From positions 15,424 to 79,423 of the forward strand of contig JANOPA010000014.1 of NCBI GenBank assembly GCA_031421635.1: 64,000 nt of DNA, written 5' to 3'. Source of the stretch: Betaproteobacteria bacterium (lineage in GTDB: Bacteria > Pseudomonadota > Gammaproteobacteria > Burkholderiales > Burkholderiaceae_E). Below, one piece after another: positions 21,096 through 41,162 of this stretch. The notes beneath the pieces were generated by a model. That model had not been told where the DNA came from. It saw only the letters and a program-made list of their open reading frames with translations, and did not search any database. Numbering within the stretch: position 1 is the first letter of the stretch; each line of letters begins with the position of its first letter. A program made the translations under genes and the position numbers.

Positions 21096-21437
21096 CAACA
21101 TATGCTGAATCGACCAGCGTCCCAGCCCGCGTTTTTCAAGCGCATCGCTATTGAGTCTTTGAGCATGGATGGACGTTTCCCAGACCGCGCGCGGCGCGAA
21201 GTTATAGAGGGTGAGACCGCGAGCGTGGTATAGCTCGTGCGCAGCAGGGATGAGCGGCAACACCGAAAGCCAAGCACAGCTACGGCCAGCGCCTAGCATT
21301 TGCCAACCACTAAGAGAGTGGTGTGCCACCCCCCAAGCCATCGCAAAGTAGGTCATCGGACCCAGTACTGTCGATATCCAAACCGGAATATTGGCAAACG
21401 CCTGATTCTTGATGGTTCGCGTCGAGAGATCGCGCGC
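21096..21437 (-). pseudogene. Remnant of an AlkB-like membrane di-iron hydroxylase/desaturase
   Basis: 'LIPAAHELYHARG' is a His-box-1-like motif. It is followed directly by 'LYNFAPRAVWETSIHAQRLNSDALEKRGLGRWSIQHML'. Compare P. putida AlkB 'SIYKFSIREIPGAFIRAWGLEEQRLSRRGQSVWSFDNEIL'. The ~40 aa between these blocks, including His box 2, are deleted, and the C-terminal half is absent. Confidence 0.45.
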
Positions 21438-23469
21438 TCAATCGCAATCGCGATTTGACGTGCAGGCGTTTCCAACTGCTGAATCTGCTCTGGGATGAGC
21501 AGCCAGCGCGGCTGGGCGGGCTGGAGCGCGAGCACGCCCCGAATACGAATCGGGGCCTGCAAAGGAACGTAGTGCCAAGCATGAGCGGGCAAAGTAGATG
21601 TTGCAAGGCCCGCACGCTGGCCATGGCGATAGGCCCAGTCAACAATGCCGGTATCAATCGAGTCGGGCAAATTGTCACCAAAAACCAATTTGTCGGTGGC
21701 ATCAGGCAGCAACGCTATGGCTTGACCACCAAAAGTACGATCGACCGCCGCTTTGCCGAGGTCCACGATTTGGACGGCTTGAAGAGCCGCCGATAAGTCT
21801 CGAGTTAATTCGAATAGGCCTCGTGCACGTCGTTCCCGACTGGCGGAGATGCGAGCTGAAAAACGTAGACGTGCGGTGAGTTGACCAATCAGTAAACTCA
21901 CAAACAACATCACGGCAAAGGTCACAAGGTATTGCACGTCATTGACGGCAAAAGAAAACCGGGGGGCTACAAAGAAAAAGTCGAATGAGGCCACGCCGCA
22001 CACGGCTGCAAGCATCGTCGGCCCGCGTCCGAGTTTTAGTGCCACCATAACCACATAAAGCAGAAATAGCATCACGATGTTTGCGATGTCCAGCAGTGGA
22101 TGCAGTGGGAGTACCAGGAGCGTCGTCGCAACGCAACTCGCCGCTGCCAAGGCGTAGCGCTGCCAACCGAAGCGCCCCTCCGGTAAACGTGAAAGCGATG
22201 CCTCACCTTCTTGATGATTACGAGGCACCATCTGGGGAAGTTGACGCGTGCTCGCGGCAATGCCTACTTCAATAATATCGAGAGAGGGTGCTAATTCGGC
22301 CAATTGGCGAGTGATGGTTGGTTGAATCAAGCGCCGCAGCGCTTGCCAGCGCCGCGCACGAGGACGGCCCGTGACCAAGGTAGCGCAATTCAGCGCCTGA
22401 GCCTGTCGAAGGAGTTCGACCGCAATGTTGTCAGCCGACACTACGGCCGTGCTTGCGCCAAGTTCTTCGGCTAACTTAAGTACGCTTAAAGTGCGGTCGC
22501 GCACCGCCGAAGGTAAGCGCTGAAGTGCGGGGGTTTCTACATAAATTGCATGCCAATTGACGTTAAGTTGCGAAGCCAGGCGGGCACTACTGCGCACCGC
22601 ATGTTCGGCCCCATCGTGGGGGCCAACACAGACGAGGAAGGCACCCGAGGTGCTCCATGCTATCGCAGCACTGGCCGCGCCTTGTGACTGCTTATTGCGG
22701 TAACTGCGTACATCGCCTTCCACATGCTCGGCAGTACGGCGCAGCGCAATCTCGCGAAGCGCAATCAGATTGCCTTTTCGAAAAAATTCTGGGCAGCACG
22801 CTCGGCCATCAGGGGAAGGTAGATTTTCCCGGCCTTGAGGCGTGCCAATAACTGGTCTGGCGTAATGTCTACCAGGATGATTTCATCGGCGCGTTCCAAT
22901 ACCTTGTCCGGTATGGTTTCTTGCACGCGAATTCCGGTAATCGCCCCTACTGTGGCGTTAAGGCTTTCTAGATGCTGAACAATGAGAGCACTCCATACCT
23001 CGGTACCGGCGGCCAGTAGTTCTTGCACATCTTGCCATCGCTTTGGGTGGCGCGAACCTTTGGCATTACTGTGTGCAAGTTCGTCAACCAGCAAAACGTC
23101 CGGGTGGGCCGCCAAGGCTCCGTCCAGATCGAACTCCAAACGGCTACCAACCGAGGAGGGCAAGGCACGCAGCGGTAATTGCTTGAGACCCGACAGGAGT
23201 TCCGCGGTTTCGATACGACCATGTGTTTCGATTACGCCGACCAGGATCTCCCGGCCAGCCCGCGCAGCGCGTTGTGCGGCATCTAACATAGCGTAAGTCT
23301 TCCCGACTCCCGCCCCAGCACCGAAGTAAATTATTACCTTGCCCCTGCGAAGTATGCCGCTGGACAATTCGCCGATACTTAGCTCGCTAACCTTTGGCCG
23401 AACCGACTCATCGCTCAATTGGGCAAGCAACTGGTCGGGGTCGGGCCGGGAGTCCTGCCTGCTCGCCAA
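21353..23469 (-). pseudogene. kdpD: Sensor kinase KdpD, frameshifted and 3'-truncated (no kinase core)
   Basis: The N-terminal KdpD domain with P-loop 'GAGAGVGKTYAML' lies in 22765-23469. A frameshift occurs near the T6/A6 run at 22781-22786: 'NFFEKAI*' against the expected 'NFFRKGNLIALREIALRR', which is readable in the next frame. Usp, DUF4118 TM and GAF-like parts lie in 21353-22723. The ORF ends right after '...ARQIAIAIERA', so the HisKA and HATPase domains (~250 aa) are missing. No kdpE follows. Confidence 0.85.
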
Positions 23470-23495
23470 GAGTGAGAGCCTTTCAGAGGATATCG

Positions 23496-24158
23496 TTATC
23501 GACGCGCAAGAGTAGCACTACGGGGAGTAGGAATGTAGGAGTAGCAGTACCGGGTTGGCGGGCGAAGCGTCGCCAAGGCAAGATTGAGCTTGAGCACATT
23601 GATCTGACGTTCACCGATAAAATTGAGGAGCGGCTCTTCCGTCGGCGAGTCCACCAAGTTCTGAACCGTATCGGCAGCCAGGCCGCGAGCTTTGGCGACC
23701 CTGGCTACTTGGTAGCGTGCCGCAGCAGGGCTAATGTGAGGATCGAGACCACTGGCGGAAGACGTCACTAGGTCGACTGGAACAGGTGCCTTATTGCCAG
23801 AATCGGCGCTACGCAAGGCCTCGATCCGCCCTTTTATAGAGTCGATGAGCGCAGGGTTCAATGGACCAAGGTTCGAGCCACTTGAGGCGCTCGCGTTGTA
23901 AGGCATAGGCGCGGTGGCCGAGGGTCGTCCCCAAAAATGTCCTGGGTCCACAAACTGCTGTCCGATCAGCGTCGAGCCGACCGCTTGTCCTTCGCGAAAA
24001 ATTAGGCTGCCACTCGCCTGCACGGGAAATATCGCCTTCGCGAAGCTGGTTACGACCAGTGGGTATGCGAGACCGGTCACAAGAGTGAGTACGAAGAAAA
24101 GCACCAGTGCTGGCCTTAAAAAGGTGTTCATAGCGGTTTTCATTTCAGTTCCATTCAA
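23496..24158 (-). CDS. kdpC: Potassium-transporting ATPase subunit C
   Basis: N-terminal TM '[23 protein letters not shown]'. Conserved 'ASGSLIF', 'FWGRPSA', 'SSGSNLGP' and '[17 protein letters not shown]' blocks. It appears intact. The start is ambiguous (24158 or 24143), and the C-terminus is ~20 aa longer than usual. Confidence 0.85.
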
Positions 24159-24180
24159 AGTCTTAAAAATAGTGCTTGGC

Positions 24181-26178
24181 TTAGGCTAGATGCAAGGCCA
24201 CCAGCACCAGGTCGATGGCTTTAATCCCAAAGAAGGGCACGATTAATCCCCCCAACCCATAGATCAACATATTGCGACGAAGCAGCGCCGCGGCACCAAT
24301 AGCGCGGTACTTGACGCCCTTGAGCGCTAAAGGAATCAAAAAAACAATGATCAAGGCATTAAAAATTACGGCCGACAAAATCGCTAAAGATGGACTGCCC
24401 AGTTGCATAACGTCAAGTGCGGCCAACTGCGGATAGGTGGTTACAAAAATTGCGGGGATGATGGCGAAATACTTGGCGACATCGTTGGCAATTGAAAACG
24501 TGGTGAGCGAGCCGCGTGTCATCAGTAGGGCCTTCCCGGTCTCCACAATTTCTAGCAGTTTGGTGGGGTTTGAGTCTAGGTCCACCATATTGCCGGCTTC
24601 CTTGGACGCCTGCGTGCCGCTATTCATGGCTACGGCTACGTCGGCCTGTGCAAGTGCCGGAGCATCATTGGTGCCATCTCCGGTCATAGCGACAAGGCGA
24701 CCTTCTGCCTGGTACTTACGAATGAGCTTGAGCTTATCTTCAGGCGTGGCCTCAGCTCTACTAGGCCGAGCACGGTGAGGTCACTCGCGACGGCCAGGGG
24801 AGTACTTCCGCGACGTGCTATTTCGTCGGCCGCACGTAGGACTTCGGGAGGCATCACACCACCTAGTGCTTCGACGTGTCTTCTAATTGCATCAACCGCA
24901 CCCTTACGCAATTTTAAAACGCGACCGTCCAGCTGTTGTCGGTCGATACCACTCATACGGGTTTGGGCAGTGAATGCAATCTCGGTAATGGATCCACAGG
25001 AATTCCCAGGCCCTGCTAGCGGCTGAGTAAAGCCCATCTTCTCTGCGAGTACGATGATGCTGCGTCCCTCGGGCGTTTCGTCGGCCTGTGAAGCTTGCAT
25101 GACGCAAACACCCAGTTGACGCTCGCTCACTCCAGGTGCCGGAAAGAAAGCGCTGGCCTGACGGTTTCCATGAGTGATGGTACCGGTCTTGTCTAGCAAC
25201 AGGACATCGACATCGCTAGCGGCTTCGACTGCGCGACCTGAAGTTGCGATCACATTGGCTTGCATCATTCGACTCATGCCCGCCACCCCATCCGCAGAAA
25301 GCAGGCCTCCGATGGTTGTAGGAATCAGGCACACCAGTAAGGCAACAAGTGCTGTGAGACTCACGGCCGTGCCAGCCTTGGCCGCTTCCACACTGAACAG
25401 CGAGTACGGTAGGAGGGTCACGGTGACCATCAGGAATACGATAGTGAGTGCGACCAGCAAAATAGTTAGTGCAATTTCATTCGGCGTCTTTTGGCGTTTG
25501 GTGCCCTCGACCGTACTAATCATGCGATCAAGAAACGATTCGCCGGGATTCACGGTAATACGTACGACCAGCCAGTCGGACAGCACCTGGGTACCACCGG
25601 TCACGGACGAGAAATCCCCGCCCGACTCACGTACAACAGGCGCGGATTCACCCGTGATGGCGCTCTCGTTCACCGAGGCCACACCTTCAATCACTTCGCC
25701 ATCCAGTGGAATCATGTCGCCTGCATTAACGAGGCACACATCCCCTTTACGCAAGTTGAGCGCCTCTTCAGGTAACCAAGTTCTTCCGTAAAAAATATCT
25801 TCTGTAGCGGATATAAATTTTTTTGCCCAGGTGCTTTTTCAAACTGCGAAGCGACTCGGCTTGGGCCTTGCTACGGCCTTCTGCCAAGGCTTCCGCGAAG
25901 TTTGCGAACAACACTGTGAACCAGAGCCAGGTCGCTATGGCAACGATGAAGCCGAAGGGAGCATCCCCGACGCCTTGGAAAGCTTGTACGGCCAGTACAG
26001 TCGTCAAAATGCTACCGATGTAGACCACAAACATGACGGGGTTACGCCACTGGACACTTGGGCTCAGCTTGCGAAATGATGCCTTAATGGCGGGCTTGAG
26101 GAGCACCGGGTCAAAGATCGAAAGAAAAGTTTTTGTTTGCATTGTATTCACCTCAAAAGTTCCGATGTTTGATGACAT
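24181..26178 (-). pseudogene. kdpB: P-type ATPase subunit KdpB, split into three ORFs
   Basis: There are three fragments: 25768-26178, 24684-25754 and 24181-24687. Lesion 1 is a 1-nt frameshift at the A5 run (plus-strand T5 at 25835-25839), between 'ESLRSLKK' and '[13 protein letters not shown]...[13 protein letters not shown]'. Lesion 2, near 24754, is a deletion of ~48 codons plus a frameshift. It removes the 'KDIVK...TGDN...' segment just before '[39 protein letters not shown]'. Confidence 0.9.
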
Positions 26179-26181
26179 GCT

Positions 26182-27981
26182 TCAATGCCCAACCCAAAGC
26201 ATCAGATGCTCAACCATTGGGCCTAGAGCTAGCCCTGGTACGTAGTTAAGTAAACCCACCAATAGCACGGTGCCGATGAGCAAAACGACAAATAGCGGGC
26301 CATGGGTAGGCATCGTGCCTGCAGTCAAAGGTAGGCGGCTTTTGGCGGCCAATGCCCCGGCAATTGCCAGCACCGGCAAGATGACGCCGAAGCGACCAAA
26401 CCAGATCGTCAAAGCCAACATCCAGTTGTAAAATGGGGTATTGGCCGATAGCCCCGCAAATGCGCTGCCGTTGGTGTTGGCCGCGGAGCTAAAGGCATAG
26501 AAAATTTCGGAAAAGCCGTGCGCACCCGGATTGCTGATCCCGGCTTTGCCGTCGGCGGCTATGACTGCAATCGCCGTGCCCAGCAAGACCAGAATCGGGC
26601 TGACCAAAATCGCAATTGAGGTCAGTTTCATTTCATGGGCTTCAATCTTTTTACCCAAATACTCCGGCGTCCGACCGATCATTAGTCCGGCGATAAACAC
26701 GGTGAGAATGGCAAAAAGGAGCATGCCGTAAAGGCCGCTGCCTGTGTCTCCAAAAACCACTTCACCGAGCTGAATCATCACCATGGGTACCATGCCACCA
26801 ATTGGTGTGAAGGAGTCGTGCATGGCGTTCACCGCGCCGCACGAAGCTGCCGTGGTGATCACGGCAAACAAGCTTGAGGCGGTGATGCCGTAACGCACTT
26901 CCTTGCCTTCCATATTCCCGCCGACCTGCATGACGCTCTCGGTCTGATCTACCCCAAGGGTGCTGAGCAGCGGATTGCCGCTTTGTTCGGCTGGTGTAAT
27001 GACCGTTACGGCGATCACAAACATCACGACCATGGCAGCGAGCACCGCCCACCCCTGGCGCTGATCACCAACCAAGCGCCCGAAGGCAAAGCATAAGGCG
27101 CAGGGGATGAGAAATATGGCGAGCATTTGCAATAAATTACTGAGCGCCGTCGGATTCTCGTAAGGGTGGGCCGAGTTGGCGTTGAAGAAGCCGCCGCCAT
27201 TGGTGCCAATCATCTTAATGGCCTCTTGAGAAGCCACTGGTCCCATGGCCAAAGTCTGCTTTTCGGCTTTCAGATCTTCCATGACCGGTGGGCCCTGCGC
27301 GTCTTTAAGCGCTTGCCCGTCAGTGCCATTTTTTGGCTGTTGGTAACTAGTAACTTCCAAGGTGTTCACTTATCGGTACGGGTCGAAGTTTTGAATGACG
27401 CCCTGTCCGACAAGGAAGACGGCCAATAGCACTGATAGCGGCATCAGTAGCCAAGCGATGATACGGGTAACGTCCACCCAAAAATTACCCACCACGCGTG
27501 TGGATTGAGCAGCAAAACCACGGATAAGTGCAAAGGCGACGGCGATCCCGGTGGCAGCGGAAAAATAGTTCTGAACAGTAAGTGCCAGCATTTGCGTTAA
27601 ATAACTCATGGTGGATTCACCGGCGTAGCCTTGCCAATTGGTGTTGGTCACAAAACTGATTGCCGTGTTGAACGCCGAGTGCGGCGAGACCGGTGCCATG
27701 CCCGCTGGGTTCAGTGGTAGCCAGGTTTGCAGACGCTGCATGCCATAGACCACGAACACACCAATAGCATTGAAAGCTAGTACGGCTAATGCATACTGCG
27801 ACCATGACATCGAGTGGTCAGACGAAGTGCCAGCCAAGCTGAATAATAGTCGCTCTGTCCTCCGCATCCAGTTCGGAAGTTGACCCGAACTTAGACGGGC
27901 CAGCCAAGCACCCAGCGGCCAAGCAACGATGCCCAATAGAGCGAGATAGACGGCCAGCAAAGCCCATGACTTAATACTCAT
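26182..27981 (-). pseudogene. kdpA: Potassium-transporting ATPase subunit A with in-frame nonsense codon
   Basis: ORFs 27370-27981 and 26182-27369 are in the same frame, separated only by a TAA at 27370-27372 ('[16 protein letters not shown]'). Compare E. coli 'NFLPYQAVNTVEG'. The sequence is otherwise collinear with KdpA. Confidence 0.9.
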
Positions 27982-29434: not shown

Positions 29435-30976
29435 TCAGGCCAAAGAGGTTTCTCTTATGTCTTTTCGAATGTCTGAAAAAACTCCGCAACACACCCAGTA
29501 GTCCAGTCCCGGAACTTTCTCAAGATAGGTGCTCTTTAGAGAGGCCCGCCCAGTGGCCGGATTACGGACTTCGTAATCTATCCAGCCATTGCCTTGATCC
29601 CGAGCCACGGTGATCGCGGCCTTGACATAAAAAAATCCTTTGGCGTCGGTCAGCTCGAAGGTGTCGGTGCCGATTAGCGTCGGCTCGCCACCGTGGGCCA
29701 ACAAAAACCCGCGAAAATCGGAAAGCACAACAAACAGGTCGCGTTTATGAAATCCGGCCTCACGGTCGTTGAATTTGGCGGCAGCGGCGCTTGGGCCCCG
29801 GCGCGTCACCTCGGCCACTGCGCGCTGGACAAGTTCAACACAGGCCTCGCGGCTATTAAAGCGCGAGGCCTTCAACCCGACTAGACTTTGATCCAAGGCG
29901 AAGGCCTCCTGCTCAAGACCCGCCGCCAATTTTGCAACTTGATCGACGGCACTTGCGTTACTCTGTGTGAGGTTGGCCATTTGCTCGACCGCACTCTTGA
30001 TCTGTCCAACACCAGTGCTTTGCTCGCTGGAGGCGTTAGCGATGTCGTCGATGAGATCTTGTGCCTGTGCGACTTGAAGTAGAACATCTTCAAGAATTTT
30101 GGCGCTGTTGTTGGAGGCGACCATCCCACCTTGAATTTGCCGGGTGGCCGAAGTGATGCGCTCTCGGATGACTTTGGCGACATCGCCACTTCGATTGGAA
30201 AGCGCTCTGACTTCATCCGCGACCTGCGCAAAGCCTCGACCGTTGTTGCCTGCGCGCGCGGCCTCGATGGTCGCGTTTAGCGCAAGCATATTGGTTTGCG
30301 TAGCGAAGCTTTCAATCAGATCGATAATTGCAATCACCTTTTGGGACTTACGACCTGTTTCGTTGACTGCATTGCTAATTGCGATCACTTGATCGGCTCC
30401 CGCATAGGCAGCCTCCGTTGATTGTTTGGCGAGATCTTTGACTTCACGGCAGTTTTGTGCATTTCGTTCAATTGACGCGGTGAACTGCTCCAGACCTGCG
30501 CCAGTTTCTTCGAGCATCGCGGCGATTTCTTCGGCTTGGGTCAACAATCGATTGGCGTCCTGCGAGGTTTGCTTGCTGTTGTGGAGCAGGTTTTCCGCGA
30601 TCCTTGCGGTCTCGTCAGTCAATACCTTAACTCGCTCAGCATATCCAAGAACGAAGGGAACCACGCCTTGGTTGCGCCACCGGCTGTCGATATCCTTGGC
30701 GTCAAATTTCCAGTCACCGCTCAAGGCGCGCTTCAATAAATCGGCGCCGATGCTCAAATGCCGTTGGCGGTAGTAAGCGAATCCAAGGAAAAGGTAGGTC
30801 CCGGCAATCAATAGACCCACCACAAGCGCGGTTCTAAATTGACCCGGAGGAAAAATCGCTACGGCGAGTAAGGTGATCAAAATGAAGGCGCTACAGATGG
30901 GTCCAAATGCAGTGAGGCCAAAGCGCTGGTAGACCCTCAAGACAGGCCAGCCAAGAATTTCAAGAGTTTTACGCAT
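29435..30976 (-). CDS. Methyl-accepting chemotaxis protein: TM hairpin, signalling domain, C-terminal Cache-like domain
   Basis: Two closely spaced TM helices ('[16 protein letters not shown]' - PPGQFR - '[20 protein letters not shown]') leave no periplasmic domain. MCP hairpin tip '[42 protein letters not shown]'. The last ~150 aa read '[26 protein letters not shown]...[58 protein letters not shown]', which matches the single-Cache-2 pattern. Alternative starts are at 30982 and 31021. Confidence 0.85.
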
Positions 30977-32561
30977 GATCATGCTCCCGCTCAAAAACGC
31001 CGGCCGTGACACAGGCTTCATGGCCTTGAACCAACTGGGCGTAGACTAATTTATCCACAATCTTCCCGCTTGCGGGAAGCTTCACCTTACAGACCTGCCA
31101 GGATTTTTGCGTCGTTCGGAGTTGTTTACGGATAATCTCAATGTCGACGGGCAAATGGGTACGGGCATCGTTACTAAGATCTTTTCCGACGATGTTTGAA
31201 ATCGCGCTATGGGCGAGGCAAGGCCCATCAAAGCTCCAGATCGCGACAGCGTGTTCACACTGGTCCAGACTCGGATTGGCGTTGGAGAGATTAATGCTAT
31301 CGCAGACTTCCTGAAGCCCTCGTTCTTCGATGTCTTGAATGACTTGCTTCACCAGGCCGACAACGGTGTCCGTGTTCTTAAAGCGATCCTCTCCAAAGAC
31401 ATCGATCTTTGCGAGTAAACCAAGCGCGTCTTTGTTGGTGATGGCACTGACTCTCACCATATCATCGGCAGCAGCAGCATTTTGCTGTGTAATGGTGGCC
31501 ATTTGTTCGACGGCTGCCTTGATCTGTTCGGAGCCGCTGGTTTGTTCGGCTGACGCCGAAGCGATGTCTTGAATCAACTGATGAGTTTGCGCCACCAGGT
31601 CTGAAATTATTTTCATGGACTGCGATGCCGCTTCTGTTGACGTGCGGCTCGAGGACAGCTCTTCCAAGCATTCGCCGACTATGAGCTTTGCGTCCGCGGC
31701 GGCGAGAGAGGCGCGCTGGGCGAGCTTGCGCACTTCGGTGGCGACTACGGCAAAGCCACGGCCATGCTCGCCAGCGCGAGCCGCTTCGATGGCCGCATTG
31801 AGCGCCAATAAGTTGGTTTGAAACGCAATGTCCTCAATCATGGCGATAGAGCCCATCACATTCATCGACTCGGTAGAGGAGTCGCCCATGGTGTCCAGTA
31901 AGCTGTCCAACGCACCTTGAGCAGAGAGCACAAGATGACTCGCTTTTTCAGCCCGCTTGGCCGCTTCTTGTGTATTCACCATATTGCGTTCGACGGTCGC
32001 TGAAAACTCTTCCATCGCAGAGGCGCTCTCCTCCAACATACTTGCGATTTCTTCGGCACGATGAGACAAGGCTGCGGTGTTGCTGTCGAGTTGTTTACAT
32101 GAACCCGCCACTTCGTTGGCAGCTTGTCGCGTCGAGCCTGCCAACTGTTGAATTCTCGAATGTAGCTTGTAGGTCAGGTGTTGCACGATGTATTTCGGAT
32201 CTGGCTCTCGCTGTGCTGACCAACGCCCGTTGGTGAGTTTTTCAAAAATTCTTTGGGAAGTTTTTCGAACTTCAACCATATGCATTTGCACTGAAAATGC
32301 CACATAAATCGTGAAGGCCGCAAATAAGCTGAACAGCATGGGATGCGTGTCTGCTATGCCTAGTGAAGCCATACCGAAGAAAAGCACCATCATCACGCCG
32401 ACCACGGCATTTCCAAAGGCAACACCTGCCTTTGACAAGAGCAAGACCATGGGAGCGGTGATTCTCGCTAATAGATATTGAAGGGCTTCGTGCCCGTCAT
32501 GGCCTTTGCCGATCAAATCTTTTGTGATGTGATCTGGCTTACTGTGAAGATCATGTTTCAT
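30969..32561 (-). CDS. Methyl-accepting chemotaxis protein (paralog): TM hairpin, signalling domain, divergent C-terminal Cache-like domain
   Basis: TM hairpin '[17 protein letters not shown]...[16 protein letters not shown]'. Hairpin tip '[42 protein letters not shown]'. C-terminal ~140 aa '[28 protein letters not shown]...[36 protein letters not shown]'. The start overlaps the cheB stop. Confidence 0.85.
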
Positions 32562-33661
32562 GAGGAGAACCGTTGACTAAGTGTATGAATAATTTCTTGA
32601 GGAAAATCTTGAAGACTAATTTGCCGATGCGAGTGGCCGTTCTCAAACACTACCTTAGGCATACCATAGATGGCGCAGCTTGGCTCGTCTTGGCTAAGCA
32701 CGTAGCCGCCGCTCGTAAAAATATCCGCAGTACCGTTAGCACCGTCACGTCCCATGCCCGTGAGCACACAGGCCAAGCTTGCATCACCAAAAGCAAGGGC
32801 GACTGAAGAAAATAGTTTGTCGATGGACGGCCTGTATAGATCGGAGGGCAAGGGCTTGTCCAGTTTTACGTAAACATTCAGCGACTCCCGCCGATGCACT
32901 TGAAAATGGCAACCCCCTGGAGCGATGTAGGCGGTTCCTGGACAAAGTACCTCGCCGTGCTCCGCGAGTTTCACTCTGATGGCCTTTACCGAGCGGCTGA
33001 GCCGGTTGGTATATAGGGTCGTGAAGGATGTGGGCATGTGAATGGCAATCACGATAGGAGGGGAGTGCGCGGGCAGTTTTTCTAAAATGCTTGTGACCGC
33101 GCTTGGACCCCCAGTGGATGCGCCAATAGCGAGAATCGCTTGTGATCGGGGAGCAAGAGTGGAGGCCGCGGCAGGCGCCTTGCGAAGGCGCGTCTGCGCT
33201 GCCGAAATCCTCGCATTTGAATCGCTTAGATTTTGACGAATGCGCTTCGATCTAAAAGCGTGTCCCGCTTCGTATACTTTGATCAGTAATTCCTCGGCAT
33301 AATCTGAGAGGGTGCGTGTGTGCGGCTGCAGCCCTGGTTTGAGCACAAAATCGAGTGCTCCAAGCGCAAGGCAATCCAAGGTAATTTGAGCGCCTTCCCG
33401 AGTCATGCTGGATACCATAATGACGGGTATAGGACACTTGGAGAGGACATGCTTGAGGATTGTCGTCCCTTTCAGGTGTGGCATCTCGACGTCAAGGGTA
33501 ATAACATCGGGACCTAAACGCTCAATTGCTGCAACGACCTCTGATCCGTCCTGGCAAAAGCCGACGACGGAGATTTCGGGGTTCGATCTTAGGATCTTGG
33601 CGATCACACCGCGCGCGACTACTGAGTCGTCTACGATCAGAACTTTGACAGGTGCATCCAT
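32558..33661 (-). CDS. cheB: Chemotaxis response regulator protein-glutamate methylesterase
   Basis: Receiver domain ('VLIVDDS', '[10 protein letters not shown]', 'KP') plus a CheB methylesterase domain ('[12 protein letters not shown]', 'HMP', 'GMGRDG'). Confidence 0.9.
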
Positions 33662-33662
33662 C

Positions 33663-34301
33663 TTAGGATTTTTCGAAGAGGCTGATGTCGGGCTTTAGAG
33701 TGGTGCTGCTTTGCACTAAGGCCGCTGCGTGGCGGCTTTCTCTGTGCTGGACGCGGTTCAAGCTTACTTCGATATGGCGGCACTCAGGTTGGCTGAGCTG
33801 GGTGGCCCAATAGAGTCTGCGTGCAAAAATCCCTCCAGTGTCTTGACCACGTAGCTTTATCCTCTCTTGCCTTAAGTACTGCGCTGCAAATTGAATATTG
33901 CACAGTCCCACATTGGTGAGTTCAGTGAGGATCTGACCTCCCCCGAAAATCCAGGCCAGCATCCGATCCTTCTTGGCACCTTGGGACAAGAGTTCATTGA
34001 TGAGAAGTTCCATGGCGTAACTTCCGTAGCGCGCGTTTCGATTGGTCGGGTCCGCGTTCGATATCTCAGGCAAGCCAATCTCTCGTTGGGCGGGAAGCAT
34101 AAAGTGATTCATGCCGATCAAGCCTGCAGCTTGGTCCGTGAGGCAAACCGCGACACATGAGCCAAGAACCGTCATTAGGCCTTCGGAGGGTTTGGGATTG
34201 ACACCTTCAGACGACGCTTTTCGCGATGTTGCAAACTCACCTGGCAGGAGTCGACGGACCCAACTGGAATGTTCGCGATCAAAAAAGCGATGCGGTTTCA
34301 T
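33663..34301 (-). CDS. cheD: Chemoreceptor glutamine deamidase CheD
   Basis: 'LGSCVAVCLTD' and 'GMNHFMLP' are typical of the CheD family. Coupled to cheR (4-nt overlap). Confidence 0.85.
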   Translation of the reverse strand: MKPHRFFDREHSSWVRRLLPGEFATSRKASSEGVNPKPSEGLMTVLGSCVAVCLTDQAAGLIGMNHFMLPAQREIGLPEISNADPTNRNARYGSYAMELLINELLSQGAKKDRMLAWIFGGGQILTELTNVGLCNIQFAAQYLRQERIKLRGQDTGGIFARRLYWATQLSQPECRHIEVSLNRVQHRESRHAAALVQSSTTLKPDISLFEKS

Positions 34302-35104
34302 AGCGCTCGACGCGGGCTAAACACGGTCCGACCGCGGCTTTGGAATAATTCGTCGGAGTGAATGAGCATCTCCGTGTGCCCAGTGAAAAACAGGCCATCC
34401 ATTTTCAAGTGACGAGCGACGTACTCTGCAAACTGACGTTGTGTGGTCGTATTAAAGTAAATCATGACGTTACGACAGAAGACAGCGTCAAGAGGCTTCC
34501 AAGGGAGAACGCTTCCCTTGGCGGCCAGATTAAAAGGCTTGAACTCGACGAGTCGTTTCAGCTCGGGTTTGACTTGAACTTGGGCTTGATTGATCGAGTC
34601 GAAATACTTTGAGATCAGTCCAGGCTTGAGATGGAGGAGCTCGGACTTCGAATAGATACCTTGCTTCGCGAGGCTTAGTGCGTGGGTGTCAATGTCGCTT
34701 GCTAACACGAAGGCTTGCTTGCGATCAAGTAGACTGGGGTAGGCCTGAGTTAGAGCAATCAGTATGGAATAAGGCTCTTGCCCTGATGAGCATCCCGCGC
34801 TCCAAATCTTGGCGCTGGAAAAGTTTTCCTTGAGATGATCCACCAGGATTGGGAAGTGGTGAGCCTCTCTGAAAAATGAGGTCACATTGGTGGTCATCGC
34901 GTTGACGAAACCTTCGACTTGGGTTCGATCTTTTTCGACCAAGTCGACGTAGTCCGCAAGCTTGGTAAGGCCTAGGCTGCGCATCGGGCGGCTCAAGCGA
35001 TTCGAAGCCATTTGACGCTTACTCGGGTTCAGTTCAATCCCGGCATGTTTTCCAAGTAAGCTGCGAACGGATGCGAACGCCTGATCATCAAGAATCAGGC
35101 TCAT
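34298..35104 (-). CDS. cheR: Chemotaxis protein methyltransferase CheR
   Basis: 'TNVTSFFREAHHF', 'IWSAGCSSGQEPYSI' (SAM-binding) and 'DAVFCRNVMIYF'. 4-nt overlaps on both sides. Confidence 0.9.
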   Translation of the reverse strand: MSLILDDQAFASVRSLLGKHAGIELNPSKRQMASNRLSRPMRSLGLTKLADYVDLVEKDRTQVEGFVNAMTTNVTSFFREAHHFPILVDHLKENFSSAKIWSAGCSSGQEPYSILIALTQAYPSLLDRKQAFVLASDIDTHALSLAKQGIYSKSELLHLKPGLISKYFDSINQAQVQVKPELKRLVEFKPFNLAAKGSVLPWKPLDAVFCRNVMIYFNTTTQRQFAEYVARHLKMDGLFFTGHTEMLIHSDELFQSRGRTVFSPRRAL

Positions 35105-35649
35105 GAGAATGTCGCCTCTTCAGTGACTCGTGCCACCGCGTGGAGTTCTTCGGGTTGGAGGACCTTCTGTAAGTCAATCAGGAGCACAACCTGTTCTCCA
35201 AGCTGAGTCATTCCAATTAAATACCGAATATCAATCGCCATGGTGGTTCGGGGAACCGTCTGAATCGCGGCCGAGTGAATGCTGATGACATCTAGAACGC
35301 TATCCACCTGAATCCCGACTTTCCGAGACTCAAGCTCACTGATCAGCACCAGGTCCTGGCGACCTGCGACCTTTTCACGATTCAGATTGAAGCGCTCCTT
35401 GAGATCGATCACTGGAACAATTTCACCGCGAAGACTGGTGACGCCGACAACATAGGAGGGTGCGTGGGCTACTCGCGTCAGGTGGGCGCCGGTTCGAACT
35501 TCCCGGATTTGCAGCAGGCTAACGGCGTAGGTATGGCCCGAGACCTTGAAGGTCAGGAATGATTGGCTAACAGCATGGTCGGTCGGCTTGGCCATGATCG
35601 AGTCCTCTGGATGTGACGGTTGGGTCGCGTGAACGGAGATCTTGAGCAT
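35101..35649 (-). CDS. cheW: Chemotaxis coupling protein CheW
   Basis: CheW-like domain ('FLTFKVSGHTYAVSLLQIREV', 'VVGVTSLRGEIVPVIDL', 'IGMTQLGEQVVLLIDL'). I chose the start at the ATG at 35649, which has an AGGA SD 16 nt after the cheA stop. The track start at 35784 would overlap cheA. Confidence 0.85.
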   Translation of the reverse strand: MLKISVHATQPSHPEDSIMAKPTDHAVSQSFLTFKVSGHTYAVSLLQIREVRTGAHLTRVAHAPSYVVGVTSLRGEIVPVIDLKERFNLNREKVAGRQDLVLISELESRKVGIQVDSVLDVISIHSAAIQTVPRTTMAIDIRYLIGMTQLGEQVVLLIDLQKVLQPEELHAVARVTEEATFS

Positions 35650-35665
35650 CTTTTTTCCTGGTCGG

Positions 35666-37642
35666 TTACGCTGTGACGAGTTGCGCGGTGCCAATGGTTC
35701 GACCAAGAGCGATCGAATCCAAGACGAAAGTGATTTTCCCAGCGCCGAGTACGGTCGCGCTTTGACAATACTTTGCAGGCCCAAGATTTTTCTCGATGTT
35801 CTTGATCACAATTTGCTTTTCACCAATAATTCGATGCACGCCCAGTAGGCTTAGATCGTCACCGTTGCGTAGAACAATGCCCAGGAGTGATCCGGGTGCC
35901 GGATGTAAGGGTGTCGTTTCCATCAGATCGGCGAGGTGTGCATACGGGACAAGCGCGGTGCGGAGCGGGAAAAGCTTTTGGCCATTCGGCAGCTCTTGCA
36001 AGCCGGAAGGGTGCAGTTGAATGCATTCGGAAATCGAACTCAGCAGGATTGCGTATTGTTCGCCGTCGCATTCGACGATGAGCGCATCGGTCAAAGCCAA
36101 AGTGAGGGGCAGGACGATTGAAAAGCAAGTCCCCCGTCCGGGTGTGCTGTGGACCTGTAGTTCACCATTAAGCGACTTGATCGCTTCGGCTACGGCGTCT
36201 AAGCCGACCCCTCGACCCGACCAATGATCGACCTGAGCAGCGGTTGAAAAGCCCGGCGAGAAAATTAGCTCCGCCCATTGTGCGTCGCTGCGCGGTGTGT
36301 GTTCGTCCGCCAAACCTTTCTGGATTGCTTTGGTACGAATTGCCTGAATATCAAATCCACGTCCATCTTCTTCAATGTGAAGTACGAAGCTTGCGCCGCG
36401 CTGTTCAGCCCGAAGGCGAAGGGTCGCGGTTTCTGCTTTTCCTAAGGAGATGCGTTCGCTGGGTGACTCTAAACCGTGATCCAATGCGTTGCGAATCAAG
36501 TGAGTGACAGGATCGATCAGACGCTCAATGATATTGCTGTCGAGCTCGATTTGCTCACCGACAATGATGACTTGGACTCGTTTGCCGAGTTCAACTTTAG
36601 CGTCGCGCACGACTCGCTCAAAGCGCTTAAACAAAGTCGTGACGGGCGACATGCGCATGGAAAGAATTGCGTCCTGAAGTTGTCGAGTTTGCCGACCGAG
36701 ACGCTCAAAGAGTTCAATAACTTCTTGATCGATCACCTTGCTTTCAAGCTCGGCCTGAAAAATGGCCAGATCTGCGAGATGGCCAAGAAGTAAATCAATT
36801 TTTTCACTTGGAACCTGAATGGCGCGCTGCTCTCGTCGTCGCTCGACTTGGATCGCGGTAGGCTCATCGATATTGGCGTCGTCGTTTTCTTGAACTTCCG
36901 TAATCTCAAGATCGCAAAGGTCGTCGATCCATTCGAATAGGGAGCGAATCTCTTGCGCGGAACGAGTGGTTTCCAGAATGGTTGACCAATGCAGAAAGTT
37001 CGGCTCCGTGGCGTAGCCTGGAGCTTGATTTTCCCAGGCAATAACCTCTTTCTCGTCCCATAAAGCCGTTGTTGTAAGTGTTCCTTGTTCGGCAAGATTG
37101 TCTAGATAACGCAGAGGGTCGTTGCCACAGCTTCGCATGCCAGGATGAGGTCGAAAGCGCAGTACGAATTTATGTGTTCCTGATTTTCGCCTGAAATCAG
37201 AAGAGGATGTTGACTTTGAGAGAGCTTCGCTAGCGTCCAGAGCTTCTTGAATTTGATTCAGCTTCCGACTAAGTGCATCGACACGCTGAGTGGAAACATC
37301 GCCCTGCTTTTGTTGGGCACTACCTACCATTGAGCGCAGAAGATCTAAGGCACTTAAGAAAAGACTGATGTGCTCATCGTTGAGTTTGAGGTGGGAGGCG
37401 CCACTTATACGTCGATAGGTTTCCAGAACGGTTTCAAGTGCGTGCGCAAACTCTGCCATTTGATTAAAGCCGAGCGTTCCTGCAGAACCCTTGATCGAAT
37501 GAATTGCTCGAAATGCGGCATTAATGCTTTCGTTAATTGGGACTTGCTTTTCAATGCAAAGCAATGCCTCTTCGGCTTGATCTAGGCAGTCAAGCACTTC
37601 TTCAAAAAATGCAGAGTGAAATTGACTTAAGTCAATTGACAT
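35666..37642 (-). CDS. cheA: Chemotaxis histidine kinase CheA
   Basis: Hpt domain 'FRAIHSIKGSAGTLGF', a dimerisation domain, HATPase ('HLIRNALDHGLE', 'DDGRGFD', 'GRGVGLDAV') and a C-terminal CheW-like domain. The ATG at 37642 overlaps the end of the upstream cheY by 11 nt; the track start at 37651 is a TTG. Confidence 0.9.
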   Translation of the reverse strand: MSIDLSQFHSAFFEEVLDCLDQAEEALLCIEKQVPINESINAAFRAIHSIKGSAGTLGFNQMAEFAHALETVLETYRRISGASHLKLNDEHISLFLSALDLLRSMVGSAQQKQGDVSTQRVDALSRKLNQIQEALDASEALSKSTSSSDFRRKSGTHKFVLRFRPHPGMRSCGNDPLRYLDNLAEQGTLTTTALWDEKEVIAWENQAPGYATEPNFLHWSTILETTRSAQEIRSLFEWIDDLCDLEITEVQENDDANIDEPTAIQVERRREQRAIQVPSEKIDLLLGHLADLAIFQAELESKVIDQEVIELFERLGRQTRQLQDAILSMRMSPVTTLFKRFERVVRDAKVELGKRVQVIIVGEQIELDSNIIERLIDPVTHLIRNALDHGLESPSERISLGKAETATLRLRAEQRGASFVLHIEEDGRGFDIQAIRTKAIQKGLADEHTPRSDAQWAELIFSPGFSTAAQVDHWSGRGVGLDAVAEAIKSLNGELQVHSTPGRGTCFSIVLPLTLALTDALIVECDGEQYAILLSSISECIQLHPSGLQELPNGQKLFPLRTALVPYAHLADLMETTPLHPAPGSLLGIVLRNGDDLSLLGVHRIIGEKQIVIKNIEKNLGPAKYCQSATVLGAGKITFVLDSIALGRTIGTAQLVTA

Positions 37643-38009
37643 ATTGATCAACCAGAATCTGATTGATTTTGTTGGTTAAGGACTCTTCCGTGAAGGGCTT
37701 GGCGATCCAATCCATTGCACCGGCTTGTTTTGCCTTTTCAATGTTCTCGTCCTTCGCTCCTTTGGCAAGCACCACGATTGGAGTGTTCTTGAAATGCTCG
37801 ATTAACTTCAGACGCTGAATCAAAGTGATCCCGTCCATGCCTGGCATGTTGATATCGGTGATCACCAAGTGAACTCGTCGACCTTTGGCGATGGTCAGAG
37901 CTTCCTCCCCAGAACTTGCATGAAAAACTCGGTGTCCAAATTTCTGGAGGACGGAGGCTACGATATTGCGTATGGACGCAACATCATCAACAATCATAAT
38001 TCTTGCCAT
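37632..38009 (-). CDS. CheY-like single-domain response regulator (atypical switch residue)
   Basis: 'IMIVDDV', 'LVITDINMPGMDG' and 'AKPF' are present. At the position of the conserved Thr/Ser (CheY T87) the sequence is 'VVLAKGAK', i.e. Ala. Confidence 0.85.
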   Translation of the reverse strand: MARIMIVDDVASIRNIVASVLQKFGHRVFHASSGEEALTIAKGRRVHLVITDINMPGMDGITLIQRLKLIEHFKNTPIVVLAKGAKDENIEKAKQAGAMDWIAKPFTEESLTNKINQILVDQYVN

Positions 38010-38015: not shown

Positions 38016-38378
38016 CTACCCTAAGACTCGGGGAAGCACGTCAATCAGTGCCTGTGGGTTAAAGGGTTTCACGATCCATCCTGTGGCTCCTGCCGCTCGG
38101 CCCGCGGCCTTCATGTTGGATCCCGCCTCGGTTGTCAGTACTAAGATGGGTTTGGCCTGAGTGCTTGGCTGAGCCCGTAAGGCCTTGATAAGGTCCAAGC
38201 CACTCATGTTCGGCATGTTCATGTCGGTAATAATCAGATCGAAAGGCTCCGTTTTACAAGCGTCCAGCGCAGCCTCGCCGTCGACAGCGGAGCGGACTTC
38301 ATGGCCCGCCTTTTCAAGCGTGAACACAACCATTTGGCGCATGGTGACTGAGTCGTCGACAATAAGTATTTTTGCCAA
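38016..38378 (-). CDS. cheY: Chemotaxis response regulator CheY
   Basis: Canonical 'ILIVDDS', 'LIITDMNMPNMSG', 'VLTTE' and 'GWIVKPF'. Confidence 0.9.
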   Translation of the reverse strand: MAKILIVDDSVTMRQMVVFTLEKAGHEVRSAVDGEAALDACKTEPFDLIITDMNMPNMSGLDLIKALRAQPSTQAKPILVLTTEAGSNMKAAGRAAGATGWIVKPFNPQALIDVLPRVLG

Positions 38379-38390: not shown

Positions 38391-39782
38391 TCAGGCGAAC
38401 AGATCGACATGGTTGGATGCCTTCAAACTGGGAGACGCTTTTTCACGCTCAATTCTCGACAGGTCTTGTTCGAATGATGTGCGCTGGCTCGCAGTCGCAC
38501 CGTGCTGTGCGAGGCGATGACTGGCCCCGACGAGATCGACCACAAGTGGTTCTGGGGCCGCATGGAGGTTGGACCCGTTAATGAGATTGCGAGTCCGCAC
38601 TGCAATGGCTTCAAGATGAAGGGCGTCTACTGAAGTGAGTTTTTGCGTCATGATGTCGTGATACTGCATGGCGACAATTGAGGCTTGAATATGTGACTCG
38701 GTGTCTTTGCTCAGTTCGTTGAGCGCCTTGACGGTACTTCGGGTTTCATCGAGTTTCTGTTGAATAGCTGTGCTGACTGCGGCCACTTCGGTGCTTTCTT
38801 TTTGCGCCGTGTGCATGAGACTTGTGAGGTTACTTTGCATGTCCATAGTAACTTGGCTCAGCGCAGTTCGGATCTCTTCGACGTCTGCTCTTAGTTCTTG
38901 CAGTGTCCTTCGATGATTTTTTAGAAAACTCCACGGATCTAGGGTGTTGGAAGATTGTGCGCCGATCTCGATAGGGCTTTCAAGGTCCAAGCCGGAGCCC
39001 ATGACGTTCAAAGCCATTTGTTTGGCGGCTATATCTGCTTCTCCGAGTAGGTCGTCCGCACGAGCTGCAGTCGTCATGGCGGCTTGCTGCTTTTCGATCA
39101 GACGCGCGGCATGCTCGGCGTTATCTAGCAACTGGTAGTTCTGCCGCTTAAGAATTGTGGAAGCCAATAGGGCCAGGTCCGAGAGTGAAGCCTGTTGGTC
39201 GTTTCGTGTGCTGGTTGATTCCAATAGAGTCTTAGAAAGGTGGTTCTGAGTGTCCTGATTTCGTTCGATCTCGCGAATACTATTGGCAAGTTCGAGTGCC
39301 GAATGGGTGGAAATGTTGATCACTGAGCGAATCTCGATTTGAGCGCTATTGCTGCTGGCGAGCGCCTTCCAAGCATAGTTCGACCACTCTTTGCTTTGTA
39401 TCGCGTGGGCACCAAACCTGCTTGGTAGAAAATCTGTTTCAATCCCGAGTTCGGGCTCAGCGCGGTCGATGATTTTTTGTTGTGGGTGTGGAGTCGTTTG
39501 TGATAATGAAGTGAGAGTGGGCTCAATCTCACCCGTAGAACTCGCGTTTACTGATATGGCAGGGGCTGTTTTTTTGATCTTCTTTTTTATGCTTTTTTGT
39601 ACAAATTTAGGCGATAAAACTTCGGCGTAAATAAAGGCAGCGGCGCCCAGCACAGCGATCAAGCTACATGCTATGGCCCAAAGCGGTGCGAACAAAACCG
39701 TGATCAAGGCAGGCGCGCTGACTGCGAGGAGTACTCGGGCCAGACGCGGGCTGCGCCACATCCGTTTGATCAGTTTGTTCAA
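38391..39782 (-). CDS. Membrane-anchored coiled-coil protein; candidate CheZ-like phosphatase (hypothesis)
   Basis: N-terminal TM hairpin 'VLLAVSAPALITVLFAPLWAIACSLIAVLGAAAFIYA' and a long helical, Q/E/L-rich region. The motif 'VAMQYHDIMTQKL' (38637-38669) resembles the CheZ active site 'MAQDFQDLTGQVI' (D-x3-Q). The gene sits directly upstream of two cheY genes. The start may be TTG at 39782 or ATG at 39761. I am moderately confident it is coding and much less confident of the function. Confidence 0.6.
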   Translation of the reverse strand: MNKLIKRMWRSPRLARVLLAVSAPALITVLFAPLWAIACSLIAVLGAAAFIYAEVLSPKFVQKSIKKKIKKTAPAISVNASSTGEIEPTLTSLSQTTPHPQQKIIDRAEPELGIETDFLPSRFGAHAIQSKEWSNYAWKALASSNSAQIEIRSVINISTHSALELANSIREIERNQDTQNHLSKTLLESTSTRNDQQASLSDLALLASTILKRQNYQLLDNAEHAARLIEKQQAAMTTAARADDLLGEADIAAKQMALNVMGSGLDLESPIEIGAQSSNTLDPWSFLKNHRRTLQELRADVEEIRTALSQVTMDMQSNLTSLMHTAQKESTEVAAVSTAIQQKLDETRSTVKALNELSKDTESHIQASIVAMQYHDIMTQKLTSVDALHLEAIAVRTRNLINGSNLHAAPEPLVVDLVGASHRLAQHGATASQRTSFEQDLSRIEREKASPSLKASNHVDLFA

Positions 39783-40045
39783 AACGACACCTCCCTTGCC
39801 GACAGGAATTGCGAGCGCAGGCCGTAACGATCTAGATAGACCGCTAGATGATCAAGGTCGCAAAAGAGCACCTTGTTTCGAAGGCAAAGCATGTCCTGAA
39901 GCGTCGGATATTCGAGACGAAAAAGAGCCTGGCAGCTCACGCTGATGCGTGCAGTCGACGAAGCCATAGCCAGCGGCTCGCTGATCAGCGAGCGCAGCAC
40001 CGGCATGGCATTGCCGTCATCTATCGAAAGACGATGTTCAGTCAC
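39779..40045 (-). CDS. Small protein (88 aa), possibly STAS-like; first gene of the che operon
   Basis: GTG start with a GAGGGA SD 5 nt upstream. The stop overlaps the next gene's start. Weak resemblance to short STAS/anti-sigma-antagonist folds ('ISVSCQALFRLEYPTLQDMLCL...LDHLAVYLDRYGL'). The family assignment is tentative. Confidence 0.4.
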   Translation of the reverse strand: MTEHRLSIDDGNAMPVLRSLISEPLAMASSTARISVSCQALFRLEYPTLQDMLCLRNKVLFCDLDHLAVYLDRYGLRSQFLSAREVSF

Positions 40046-40328: not shown

Positions 40329-41162
40329 TTAGGCTGAGACTTGAGCCAGATCTCGAAGCCGCGCCGGGGTGGTGGTCGGCAGGCCAAAAAACTCTAGATA
40401 GGCGGGGATTTGTTCAAAAAGCATGTCCGCGCCTATTTGAACGCTACAGCCGCGGGCGCTGGCGGCTTGAAGAAAGGCGGTGGGCTCTGCACTGAGCACG
40501 ACTTCGCCCACAAAGGAGGCGCTTGATAGTTTTCTGATGTCGAGCGGCAGAGGGTCAGCTTGGCGCATGCCCAGAGGAGTTGCATTGACCACGAGGTCGA
40601 TGCCGCTCGGGTCGTTGCTTCCGGTTTTGATTTTGAGTTTTGGGTAGTGTCTCATTAGCCTGTGACCGAGGGCGATGCTGGCTCCGTCGTCGACGTCGAA
40701 TAAACATAAGGTGTCAATGTCGGCCTTAGCGAGTGCGGCTGCAATCGCCGAACCTACACCGCCACTACCGACGACGAGGGCCGAGCGCCCAACTGGCTCG
40801 AACCCTTTGCGTTTTATACCTCGTACAAAACCTTCTCCATCAAACATATCCCCCTCCAGTTCACCGGCGGCGCTGACGCGCACCGCATTGCAAGCGCCTG
40901 CGATCTGAACAGCCGCGCTGAAGTGATCTAAAAGTGAGAGGGTCGCCACTTTATGGGGCATGGTAATCAGCGCACCTTTAAAGTTCTTCAACTTGCAGAC
41001 CGATTTCAAAAAGTCCGTATAGTCCAGCGCTTCGCAGGCAAAGGGCACCACAATAGTGTCCACCCCAATCGCTTCGAAATACGGGTTGTAAATCATCGGT
41101 GACTTAAACGTAAATGTCGGAAAGCCGATGTGCGCGATGAAAGAGGTGTTACCGGTAATCAA
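40329..41162 (-). CDS. Shikimate/quinate dehydrogenase family protein (AroE/YdiB-like)
   Basis: 'ITMPHK' substrate-binding motif, Rossmann 'VVGSGGVGSAIAAAL' and 'VNATPLGM'. Confidence 0.8.
   Translation of the reverse strand: MITGNTSFIAHIGFPTFTFKSPMIYNPYFEAIGVDTIVVPFACEALDYTDFLKSVCKLKNFKGALITMPHKVATLSLLDHFSAAVQIAGACNAVRVSAAGELEGDMFDGEGFVRGIKRKGFEPVGRSALVVGSGGVGSAIAAALAKADIDTLCLFDVDDGASIALGHRLMRHYPKLKIKTGSNDPSGIDLVVNATPLGMRQADPLPLDIRKLSSASFVGEVVLSAEPTAFLQAASARGCSVQIGADMLFEQIPAYLEFFGLPTTTPARLRDLAQVSA

Follow-up and report, generated by a model that had tools for sequence, protein, structure and literature searches.

The receptor MCP1 carries an sCache_2 sensor domain behind its signalling domain, at the C-terminus of the protein. 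The gene lies in a 64,000-nucleotide stretch of Betaproteobacteria DNA, referred to here as the window. MCP1 is a membrane-anchored chemoreceptor without a periplasmic domain, and sCache_2 is its sole recognisable input module. With a paralogue, MCP2, it makes up the two dedicated receptors of a conserved che operon. The layout has already been catalogued but is functionally uncharacterised. Hence, MCP1 is an unstudied member of a known receptor class.

Layout of the MCP1 receptor

The MCP1 gene and its parts are listed below. Residue numbers here and throughout follow the 513-aa protein unless the 528 numbering is stated; Pfam coordinates are in the 528 numbering.

29435..30976, minus strand: MCP1 coding sequence, 513 aa plus stop (ORF list, translation, database representative P0001)
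30770..30925, minus strand: N-terminal membrane hairpin, hydrophobic helices 18-41 and 46-69 (hydropathy, AF2)
30662..30769, minus strand: membrane-to-bundle linker, residues 70-105 (AF2, Pfam)
29870..30661, minus strand: kinase-control hairpin (AF2; the Pfam MCPsignal part is 29966-30436)
29852..29869, minus strand: linker ASRFNS, residues 370-375, non-helical by DSSP of the full-length model
29474..29851, minus strand: C-terminal sCache_2 domain, residues 376-501 (Pfam, profile, AF2, Foldseek)
29438..29473, minus strand: C-terminal tail of 12 residues, disordered (AF2 pLDDT <50 at 503-513)

An alternative first ATG at 31021 gives a 528-aa ORF (29435..31021, minus strand) in the ORF list. The database representative P0001 (513 aa, 100% identity) starts at 30976, six bases from the stop of the upstream gene.

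MCP1 has the two marks of a methyl-accepting chemotaxis protein. These are a Pfam MCPsignal match (PF00015; residues 196-352 in the 528 numbering, 119 bits) and, in the AF2 model, an antiparallel helical hairpin. The full-length model has a pLDDT of 82.5. In this model the membrane helices (10-41 and 46-85) are joined by a 4-residue outer loop, FPPG (42-45). The region at the HAMP position is modelled as a helix extension followed by coil (86-105). Pfam calls no HAMP domain in this linker (residues 70-105); more distant family members do have one at the matching position. The hairpin comprises a descending helix of 136 residues (106-241) and an ascending helix of 127 residues (243-369). MCP1 residues 150-410 (528 numbering) align with residues 281-541 of the Salmonella Tcp model, and both spans are 261 residues long. 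These arm lengths and equal spans are consistent with the 36-heptad (36H) class.

Behind the hairpin, the six-residue linker is kept as ASRFNS or ASRLSS in alignments of the close clade. The Cache domain follows, in the place taken by a flexible linker and pentapeptide in Tar/Tsr-type receptors. The MCP1 tail contains no aromatic residue. Hence, a pentapeptide of the NWETF type (x[HFYW]xx[HFYW]) is absent.

The C-terminal domain belongs to the sCache_2 family

An initial annotation, made from the sequence alone, had proposed that the last ~150 aa follow the sCache_2 pattern. The domain is indeed a genuine sCache_2, with a match far beyond chance. Pfam places sCache_2 (PF17200) at residues 429-521 (528 numbering) with 52.3 bits and an E-value of 8e-14; the gathering cut-off is 25 bits. 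An overlapping dCache_2 match (434-517, 528 numbering) scores 40.5 bits against a cut-off of 26.5 bits. Only positions 55-148 of the 155-position sCache_2 profile are matched. No family of the PAS clan was found in MCP1, even at E<=1.

An alignment of 34 homologous C-terminal domains gave a profile, which was compared, by sequence, with solved sCache_2 domains. The profile matched PscD (5G4Y; 1.6e-15), Adeh_3718 (4K08; 8.9e-15), the V. parahaemolyticus structures 2QHK and 4EXO (about 5e-12) and TlpB (3.6e-7). The same alignment was used for an AF2 model of the domain (29438-29869, minus strand; pLDDT 92.6, pTM 0.85). The model has two N-terminal helices, then a PAS-like core of five strands and one long helix. 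The four sequence segments quoted in the initial annotation all find a place in it: helices 376-393 and 395-403, strands 417-428 with the His loop, the loop before helix 450-460, and strands 463-501. The N-terminal helical part is short (18 and 9 residues) compared with periplasmic members.

A Foldseek search of this model against the PDB, as had been proposed, returned sCache_2 chemoreceptor domains for all of the best 11 matches (TMq 0.62-0.74). The carboxylate-binding domains 4EXO, 5G4Y and 4K08 were the best of these, with TM about 0.7. Double-Cache kinase sensors came next; PAS and PYP domains ranked lower (TMq 0.39-0.50). We also considered a PAS domain mis-scored as Cache. This is ruled out by the lack of any Pfam PAS match together with the weaker PAS fold match.

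Cytoplasmic location of the Cache domain

MCP1 has only two hydrophobic segments in a hydropathy scan, and both are N-terminal. None was detected between MCPsignal and the Cache domain, or on either side of the Cache domain. Since no membrane segment separates the signalling and Cache domains, the latter is cytoplasmic. The initial annotation had argued the same from the transmembrane hairpin, and the full-length AF2 model agrees with it. In this respect MCP1 departs from the typical trait of the family, which is extracytoplasmic placement between two transmembrane helices. By the models, which are of monomers, the Cache domain would sit at the bundle's membrane-proximal end, next to the linker at the HAMP position.

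Upadhyay et al. 2016 (PMC4822843) describe the Cache families as mainly extracellular. Of 2243 sCache_2 domains tabulated in that study, 1783 (about 80%) lie between transmembrane segments and 174 are in proteins without any (S9 Table).

Two dedicated receptors in a conserved che operon

In the direction of transcription, the operon encodes an 88-aa ORF, a 463-aa protein, CheY, CheY, CheA, CheW, CheR, CheD, CheB, MCP2 and MCP1, all on the minus strand. The genes upstream of MCP1 are as follows.

30969..32561, minus strand: MCP2, 530 aa, immediately upstream of MCP1 and with the same layout
30981-31388, minus strand: Cache-like C-terminal domain of MCP2, diverged (Pfam, family HMM)
32558-33661, minus strand: CheB (Pfam)
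33663-34301, minus strand: CheD (Pfam)
34298-35104, minus strand: CheR (Pfam)
35101-35784, minus strand: CheW (Pfam)
35666-37651, minus strand: CheA (Pfam)
37632-38009, minus strand: CheY (Pfam)
38016-38378, minus strand: CheY (Pfam)
38391-39782, minus strand: 463-aa membrane-anchored protein of no known family
39779-40045, minus strand: 88-aa ORF, first gene of the operon (ORF)

The 463-aa protein had no match in Pfam, NCBIfam or, by sequence, the PDB, even at E<=10. Three other metagenome loci (L002, L004 and L005) have an identical gene order, including the small ORF and the tandem receptors. Each encodes a counterpart of the 463-aa protein, of 410-462 aa, at the matching position. The MCP1 homologues from these three loci (P0025, P0008 and P0006) are 53-60% identical to MCP1. 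Another homologue, P0048, closes a CheA-MCP-CheW-CheR-CheD-CheB cluster. A genome scan identified one locus, at 91% identity, in an uncultured Betaproteobacteria MAG, on a contig that ends 340 nt upstream of the gene and so carries no information on the operon.

The operon is flanked upstream by TRAP transporter and quinate/shikimate genes. Downstream of MCP1 are a SnoaL_4 gene and then a degraded kdp operon, in which an in-frame TAA interrupts kdpA, and kdpB and kdpD are broken into fragments. Neither a terminator nor a promoter signal rose above background between the MCP1 and SnoaL_4 genes. A functional link between MCP1 and SnoaL_4 was considered and rejected because SnoaL_4 is not conserved in L002, L004 and L005. 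There, its place is taken by rpoD/dnaG or by a gene of unknown family.

The C-terminal domain of MCP2 scores only 14.9 bits against Pfam sCache_2. However, it is matched with 39.3 bits, from position 2 to 134 of the 138-position profile, by a family HMM from which MCP2 had been left out. Hence, matched end to end, the domain is a diverged copy of that in MCP1. The MCP2 tail, ending EREHDHA, has no aromatic pair and does not fit the pentapeptide motif.

Spread of the layout

Signalling domain first and sCache_2 second is the order in 53/120 of the best homologue clusters of full-length MCP1. An sCache_2-type domain precedes MCPsignal in only 3 of these 120. Three topologies occur among the homologues with a C-terminal Cache. 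Some have the membrane hairpin only, like MCP1; others are soluble, for example that of Marinobacterium zhoushanense; a third type has HAMP together with either a periplasmic 4HB or ~270 aa of periplasmic sequence. No membrane segment lies ahead of the Cache domain in any of the three. Named sources of the layout include Rhodoferax, a Burkholderiales MAG and two Marinobacterium species. Close relatives without a Cache domain also exist, such as P0028 (375 aa, on a 105-kb contig). Hence, the C-terminal Cache module has been gained or lost.

The profile of the C-terminal domain alone was also run against 1.84 billion representatives. It gave 12,939 matches at E<=0.001, of which 919 reached E<=1e-30. 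The best-ranked matches are dominated by secreted proteins with 2-16 tandem sCache_2 copies; among the matches listed, 0/150 contain MCPsignal.

Earlier catalogues contain the layout. The S5 Data of Upadhyay 2016 (PMC4822843) contain proteins of Acidovorax, Rhodoferax and Curvibacter in which MCPsignal is followed by sCache_2, together with HAMP~MCPsignal~Cache_1 and HAMP~MCPsignal~Cache_2 as Pfam-27 architectures. Ortega & Krell 2020 count sCACHE2 among at least 17 domain types found C-terminal to MCPsignal. In their Supplementary Fig. 2 the order is CZB, PilZ, hemerythrin and then sCACHE2. MCP1, with a recognised ligand-binding domain after PF00015, belongs to this C-terminal class. The rarity implied by the initial annotation was thus overstated, as the homologue clusters and the Pfam-27-era architectures both attest. 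The annotation had allowed that the architecture might prove common and already characterised: it is catalogued and not rare, but no characterised case was found. In the full-text literature searched, C-terminal or cytoplasmic Cache domains of chemoreceptors appear as catalogue mentions only, and the annotators likewise knew of no characterised C-terminal Cache.

The binding pocket is partly conserved

In PscD, the hydrogen-bond donors to the carboxylate are Tyr90, His103, Tyr143 and Lys156, and the carboxylate is sandwiched by Trp92 and Trp145 (Brewster et al. 2016, PMC5062169). The same Lys and His bind carboxylate in PscD, McpP and Adeh_3718. TlpB is an sCache_2 domain able to bind a non-carboxylate, for example urea (PMC5062169). 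We mapped the pocket columns over 53 C-terminal Cache domains, comprising the che-operon (close) clade (n=27) and distant members (n=26). Columns are named by the PscD residue.

Lys156: Lys in 53/53; K481 in MCP1; Lys in MCP2
His103: His in 45/53, and in 27/27 of the che-operon clade; H428 in MCP1; His in MCP2
Tyr143: Tyr or Phe in 50/53; Y468 in MCP1; Cys in MCP2
Tyr90: Tyr in 25/26 distant members, Phe in 26/27 of the close clade; F415 in MCP1; Ala in MCP2
Trp92 and Trp145: not conserved; Val and Val in MCP1; Ala and Val in MCP2
Met140: Trp in 53/53; W465 in MCP1; Trp in MCP2

This pattern of conservation looks like that of a working binding site. In MCP2, only the His, Lys and Trp are kept. 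MCP1 retains 3/4 of the hydrogen-bond donors and 0/3 of the hydrophobic wall residues of the C2/C3-carboxylate set; its equivalent of PscD F126 is Val. Because Tyr90 is replaced by Phe and both sandwich Trp residues by Val, the MCP1 pocket differs in detail from that of a C2/C3 carboxylate binder.

Gene neighbourhoods were also considered. P0047, from Rhodoferax, is encoded directly upstream of lutABC and a FAD/FeS oxidase gene; the pocket His is replaced by Phe in this protein. P0040 lies directly downstream of a DUF485 and SSF gene pair that resembles the yjcH-actP acetate permease pair. The members with these lactate and acetate contexts share only about 30-36% identity with MCP1. A lactate permease occurs fused to a related tandem-Cache protein. 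The neighbours of MCP1 itself in the window (SnoaL_4, kdp and TRAP/quinate genes) give no clear ligand hint.

Conservation of the pocket Lys and His, taken with the lutABC and actP-like neighbours of distant members, points to intracellular carboxylate sensing. From these sequence comparisons we infer that the C-terminal sCache_2 family senses small monocarboxylates inside the cell. For MCP1, the most likely candidate ligand would be a C2/C3 monocarboxylate such as acetate, lactate or pyruvate.

Discussion

In the usual account, Cache domains are the chief extracellular sensors of prokaryotes and signal via a transmembrane helix. That route is not open to a cytoplasmic Cache domain at the far end of an MCP. 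On balance, we favour a model in which the cytoplasmic sCache_2 domain of MCP1 senses an internal monocarboxylate and acts on the bundle cap to control CheA, as part of a dedicated che operon. A small metabolite would sit in the canonical sCache_2 pocket, lined by H428, Y468, K481 and the family-specific W465. In periplasmic Cache domains the signal passes from the C-terminal helix into TM2; in MCP1 the C-terminus of the Cache domain is free. Hence, the signal would exit via the N-terminal side and linker, or by packing on the bundle cap. It would enter the four-helix bundle at its membrane-proximal cap. Altered bundle packing could then control CheA, by analogy with the C-terminal CZB domain of H. 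pylori TlpD. In full-length structures of that receptor, the MA helices run between the CZB domains and a hinge marks the junction (preprint 10.64898/2026.01.16.699579). The output of MCP1 may be metabolism-dependent (internal-state) taxis or a chemosensory response, with adaptation through CheR, CheB and CheD. More tentatively, and we hold this to be possible rather than probable, the operon may form a dedicated internal-state pathway. It would combine the "backwards" Cache input of MCP1 and MCP2, reading cytoplasmic monocarboxylate levels, with an F7-like CheD cluster, and would encode a hitherto unrecognised membrane-anchored CheZ-like phosphatase. If such a pathway exists, it would give the first mechanistic case of a Cache signal taking a route other than a transmembrane helix.

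The Cache domain could be a real sensor of something other than a carboxylate. Candidates are another small molecule (amide- or urea-like), pH or redox, or a protein partner. Loss of the aromatic sandwich and of Tyr90 in the MCP1 clade would fit this reading. So would the invariant Trp (W465), which is specific to the family and replaces Met140 of PscD, and the strong fold match to TlpB, whose ligand is different. However, the carboxylate-binding Lys and His are the best-conserved pocket residues here, and two independent gene contexts favour lactate or acetate metabolism. We consider a non-carboxylate sensor unlikely. A role without any sensing, which we judge to be distinctly unlikely, would make the domain a dimerisation cap, a means of localisation to arrays or partners, or a docking site for CheR, CheB or CheD in place of linker and pentapeptide. 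The domain does occupy the position of the Salmonella Tcp C-terminal linker and pentapeptide, and MCP1 has no pentapeptide. The degenerate pocket of MCP2, and close relatives such as P0028 that have no Cache domain, point the same way. Against this, Lys in 53/53, Trp in 53/53 and His in 27/27 of the clade are the pattern expected of a working site, and AF2 predicts a compact, confident sCache_2 fold.

It is very improbable that the architecture is an artefact, whether an assembly or frameshift fusion, a mis-scored PAS domain or an exported domain. The broken kdp genes nearby indicate that sequence or assembly errors, or pseudogenisation, do occur in the window. Conversely, the architecture is uninterrupted in 53 independent protein clusters, which include isolate genomes (Marinobacterium zhoushanense), and it recurs in four syntenic loci. 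Such recurrence in independent genomes rules out a fusion artefact. The sCache_2 fold match is much better than that to PAS, for which Pfam has no match, and a hydrophobic segment is absent after the signalling domain. This explanation is largely refuted.

Once characterised, such a receptor would reveal how a Cache fold couples to a four-helix bundle with no membrane in between, and metabolism-dependent taxis would gain a further type of sensor. Conserved across several uncultured Betaproteobacteria-like genomes, the operon is a simple system for such tests, since it has two receptors without any other recognisable input domain and a complete Che set. As a database observation, the layout is already on record. 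What is new here is the dedicated two-receptor operon, the map of pocket conservation, the geometry of the 6-residue linker and the lactate and acetate contexts of distant members.

Comparison with known systems

The closest relatives of the domain by Pfam family and fold are the periplasmic sCache_2 ligand-binding domains of PscD (5G4Y), Adeh_3718 (4K08), V. parahaemolyticus 4EXO/2QHK, P. putida McpP and H. pylori TlpB. The MCP1 domain retains their pocket His, Tyr and Lys. In these relatives the domain is held outside the cell, flanked by TM1 and TM2, and its output goes via the C-terminal helix. The MCP1 domain, in contrast, is found in the cytoplasm behind the signalling domain, and its C-terminus is free. 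It also differs from PscD in three substitutions (Tyr90 to Phe, Trp92 to Val and Trp145 to Val) and in its short N-terminal helices. Diacid_rec and YkuI_C are intracellular branches of the Cache superfamily. They indicate that Cache-type folds work inside the cell. However, they are different families with different partners, and neither is joined to an MCP signalling domain.

Receptors of the Aer2/McpB type belong to CheD-containing F7 clusters (P. aeruginosa Che2 and V. cholerae cluster III). Like MCP1, they are dedicated receptors encoded in an operon together with CheY, CheA, CheW, CheR, CheD and CheB. They share with MCP1 the lack of a periplasmic sensor and the use of a cytoplasmic sensor of the PAS/Cache superfamily. 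Aer2 has its haem-PAS domain ahead of the signalling domain, flanked by HAMP domains, and a pentapeptide end. The MCP1 sensor is instead C-terminal and of the Cache type, and there is no pentapeptide.

In arrangement, MCP1 resembles TlpD (CZB) and the PilZ and hemerythrin classes. In all of these the sensor comes after the signalling domain, at the bundle end far from the kinase. TlpD differs from MCP1 in two respects. Its sensor is a four-helix CZB domain, whereas that of MCP1 is a PAS-like alpha/beta domain; and TlpD is soluble, whereas MCP1 is anchored in the membrane.

Tandem sCache_2 proteins and the cytoplasmic Cache branch

Top scores for our C-terminal Cache domain profile belonged to proteins with 2 to 16 tandem copies of sCache_2 (cluster representatives P0121-P0270). 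Among these listed matches, most tandem proteins had signal-peptide or lipoprotein-like N-termini and none contained MCPsignal. Fusions also occurred among the same listed matches: P0200 is joined to an L-lactate permease, a second protein to SBP_bac_3, and a third carries a 5'-nucleotidase C-terminal domain. Per-domain scores of the tandem proteins appear higher than those of solved periplasmic MCP sensor domains. This difference in sequence score suggests that the cytoplasmic Cache branch may stem from the stalk-less, secreted tandem type.

Among the operon-type MCP-Cache receptors, one sub-clade (P0008, P0011-P0025) shares a conserved C-terminal tail, ...(L/P/R)ENS, preceded by a variable linker. 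This tail may offer an adaptation enzyme a non-canonical tether. It is absent from MCP1, the receptor encoded at 29435-30976 in the window, which ends ...RETSLA.

Gene neighbourhoods

Distant MCPs with a C-terminal Cache were found in three settings.

L006 (Rhodoferax MAG), 6117-13466: MCP beside lutABC and an FAD/FeS oxidase gene
L009, 1-7962: MCP as last gene, closing a CheA-MCP-CheW-CheR-CheD-CheB cluster
L010, 3204-7947: MCP beside a DUF485 and SSF permease pair

The pair in L010 resembles yjcH-actP.

In the window, we noted the following around the che operon.

40329-44592 (-): shikimate/quinate dehydrogenase-like gene, type II dehydroquinase and TRAP transporter genes
39779-40045 (-): 88-aa ORF at the operon start
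21353-27981 (-): kdp operon, degraded in appearance

The genes at 40329-44592 are the immediate upstream neighbours of the che operon. Of the TRAP components, DctP and DctM were found by scan and a 211-aa ORF adjoins DctM. Locus L004, which shares the che operon order, likewise has DctPQM, ~8 kb from its MCP.

An in-frame TAA (27370-27372) divides kdpA into ORFs of 203 aa and 395 aa, and kdpB is broken into three. The KdpD sensor domain lies on a 234-aa ORF that is not joined to the next one, of 456 aa. The broken genes could be pseudogenes or assembly errors.

A candidate CheY-P phosphatase

The 88-aa ORF and the beginning of the next gene share 4 nt. In L002, L004 and L005, a gene of 91-122 aa, with no known family, occupies the equivalent position. 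In the window, the next gene is the che operon's first large one and encodes a 463-aa protein.

Window, 38391-39782 (-): 463-aa protein gene
L002, 1199-2569: orthologue
L004, 1225-2613: orthologue
L005, 1450-2682: orthologue

The protein carries a membrane segment at its N-terminal end, and its sequence gave no match in Pfam, NCBIfam or PDB. Across the four orthologues, the patch VAMQY(H/N)DI(T/M)(T/S)QK is invariant and the extreme C-terminus, V(D/E)(L/I)F-x, is also conserved. Judged by sequence, the protein could be a CheZ-like phosphatase of CheY-P, anchored in the membrane. The catalytic Asp/Gln pair of CheZ has D-x-x-x-Q-like spacing, and the D-x-x-x-Q within the invariant patch resembles it.
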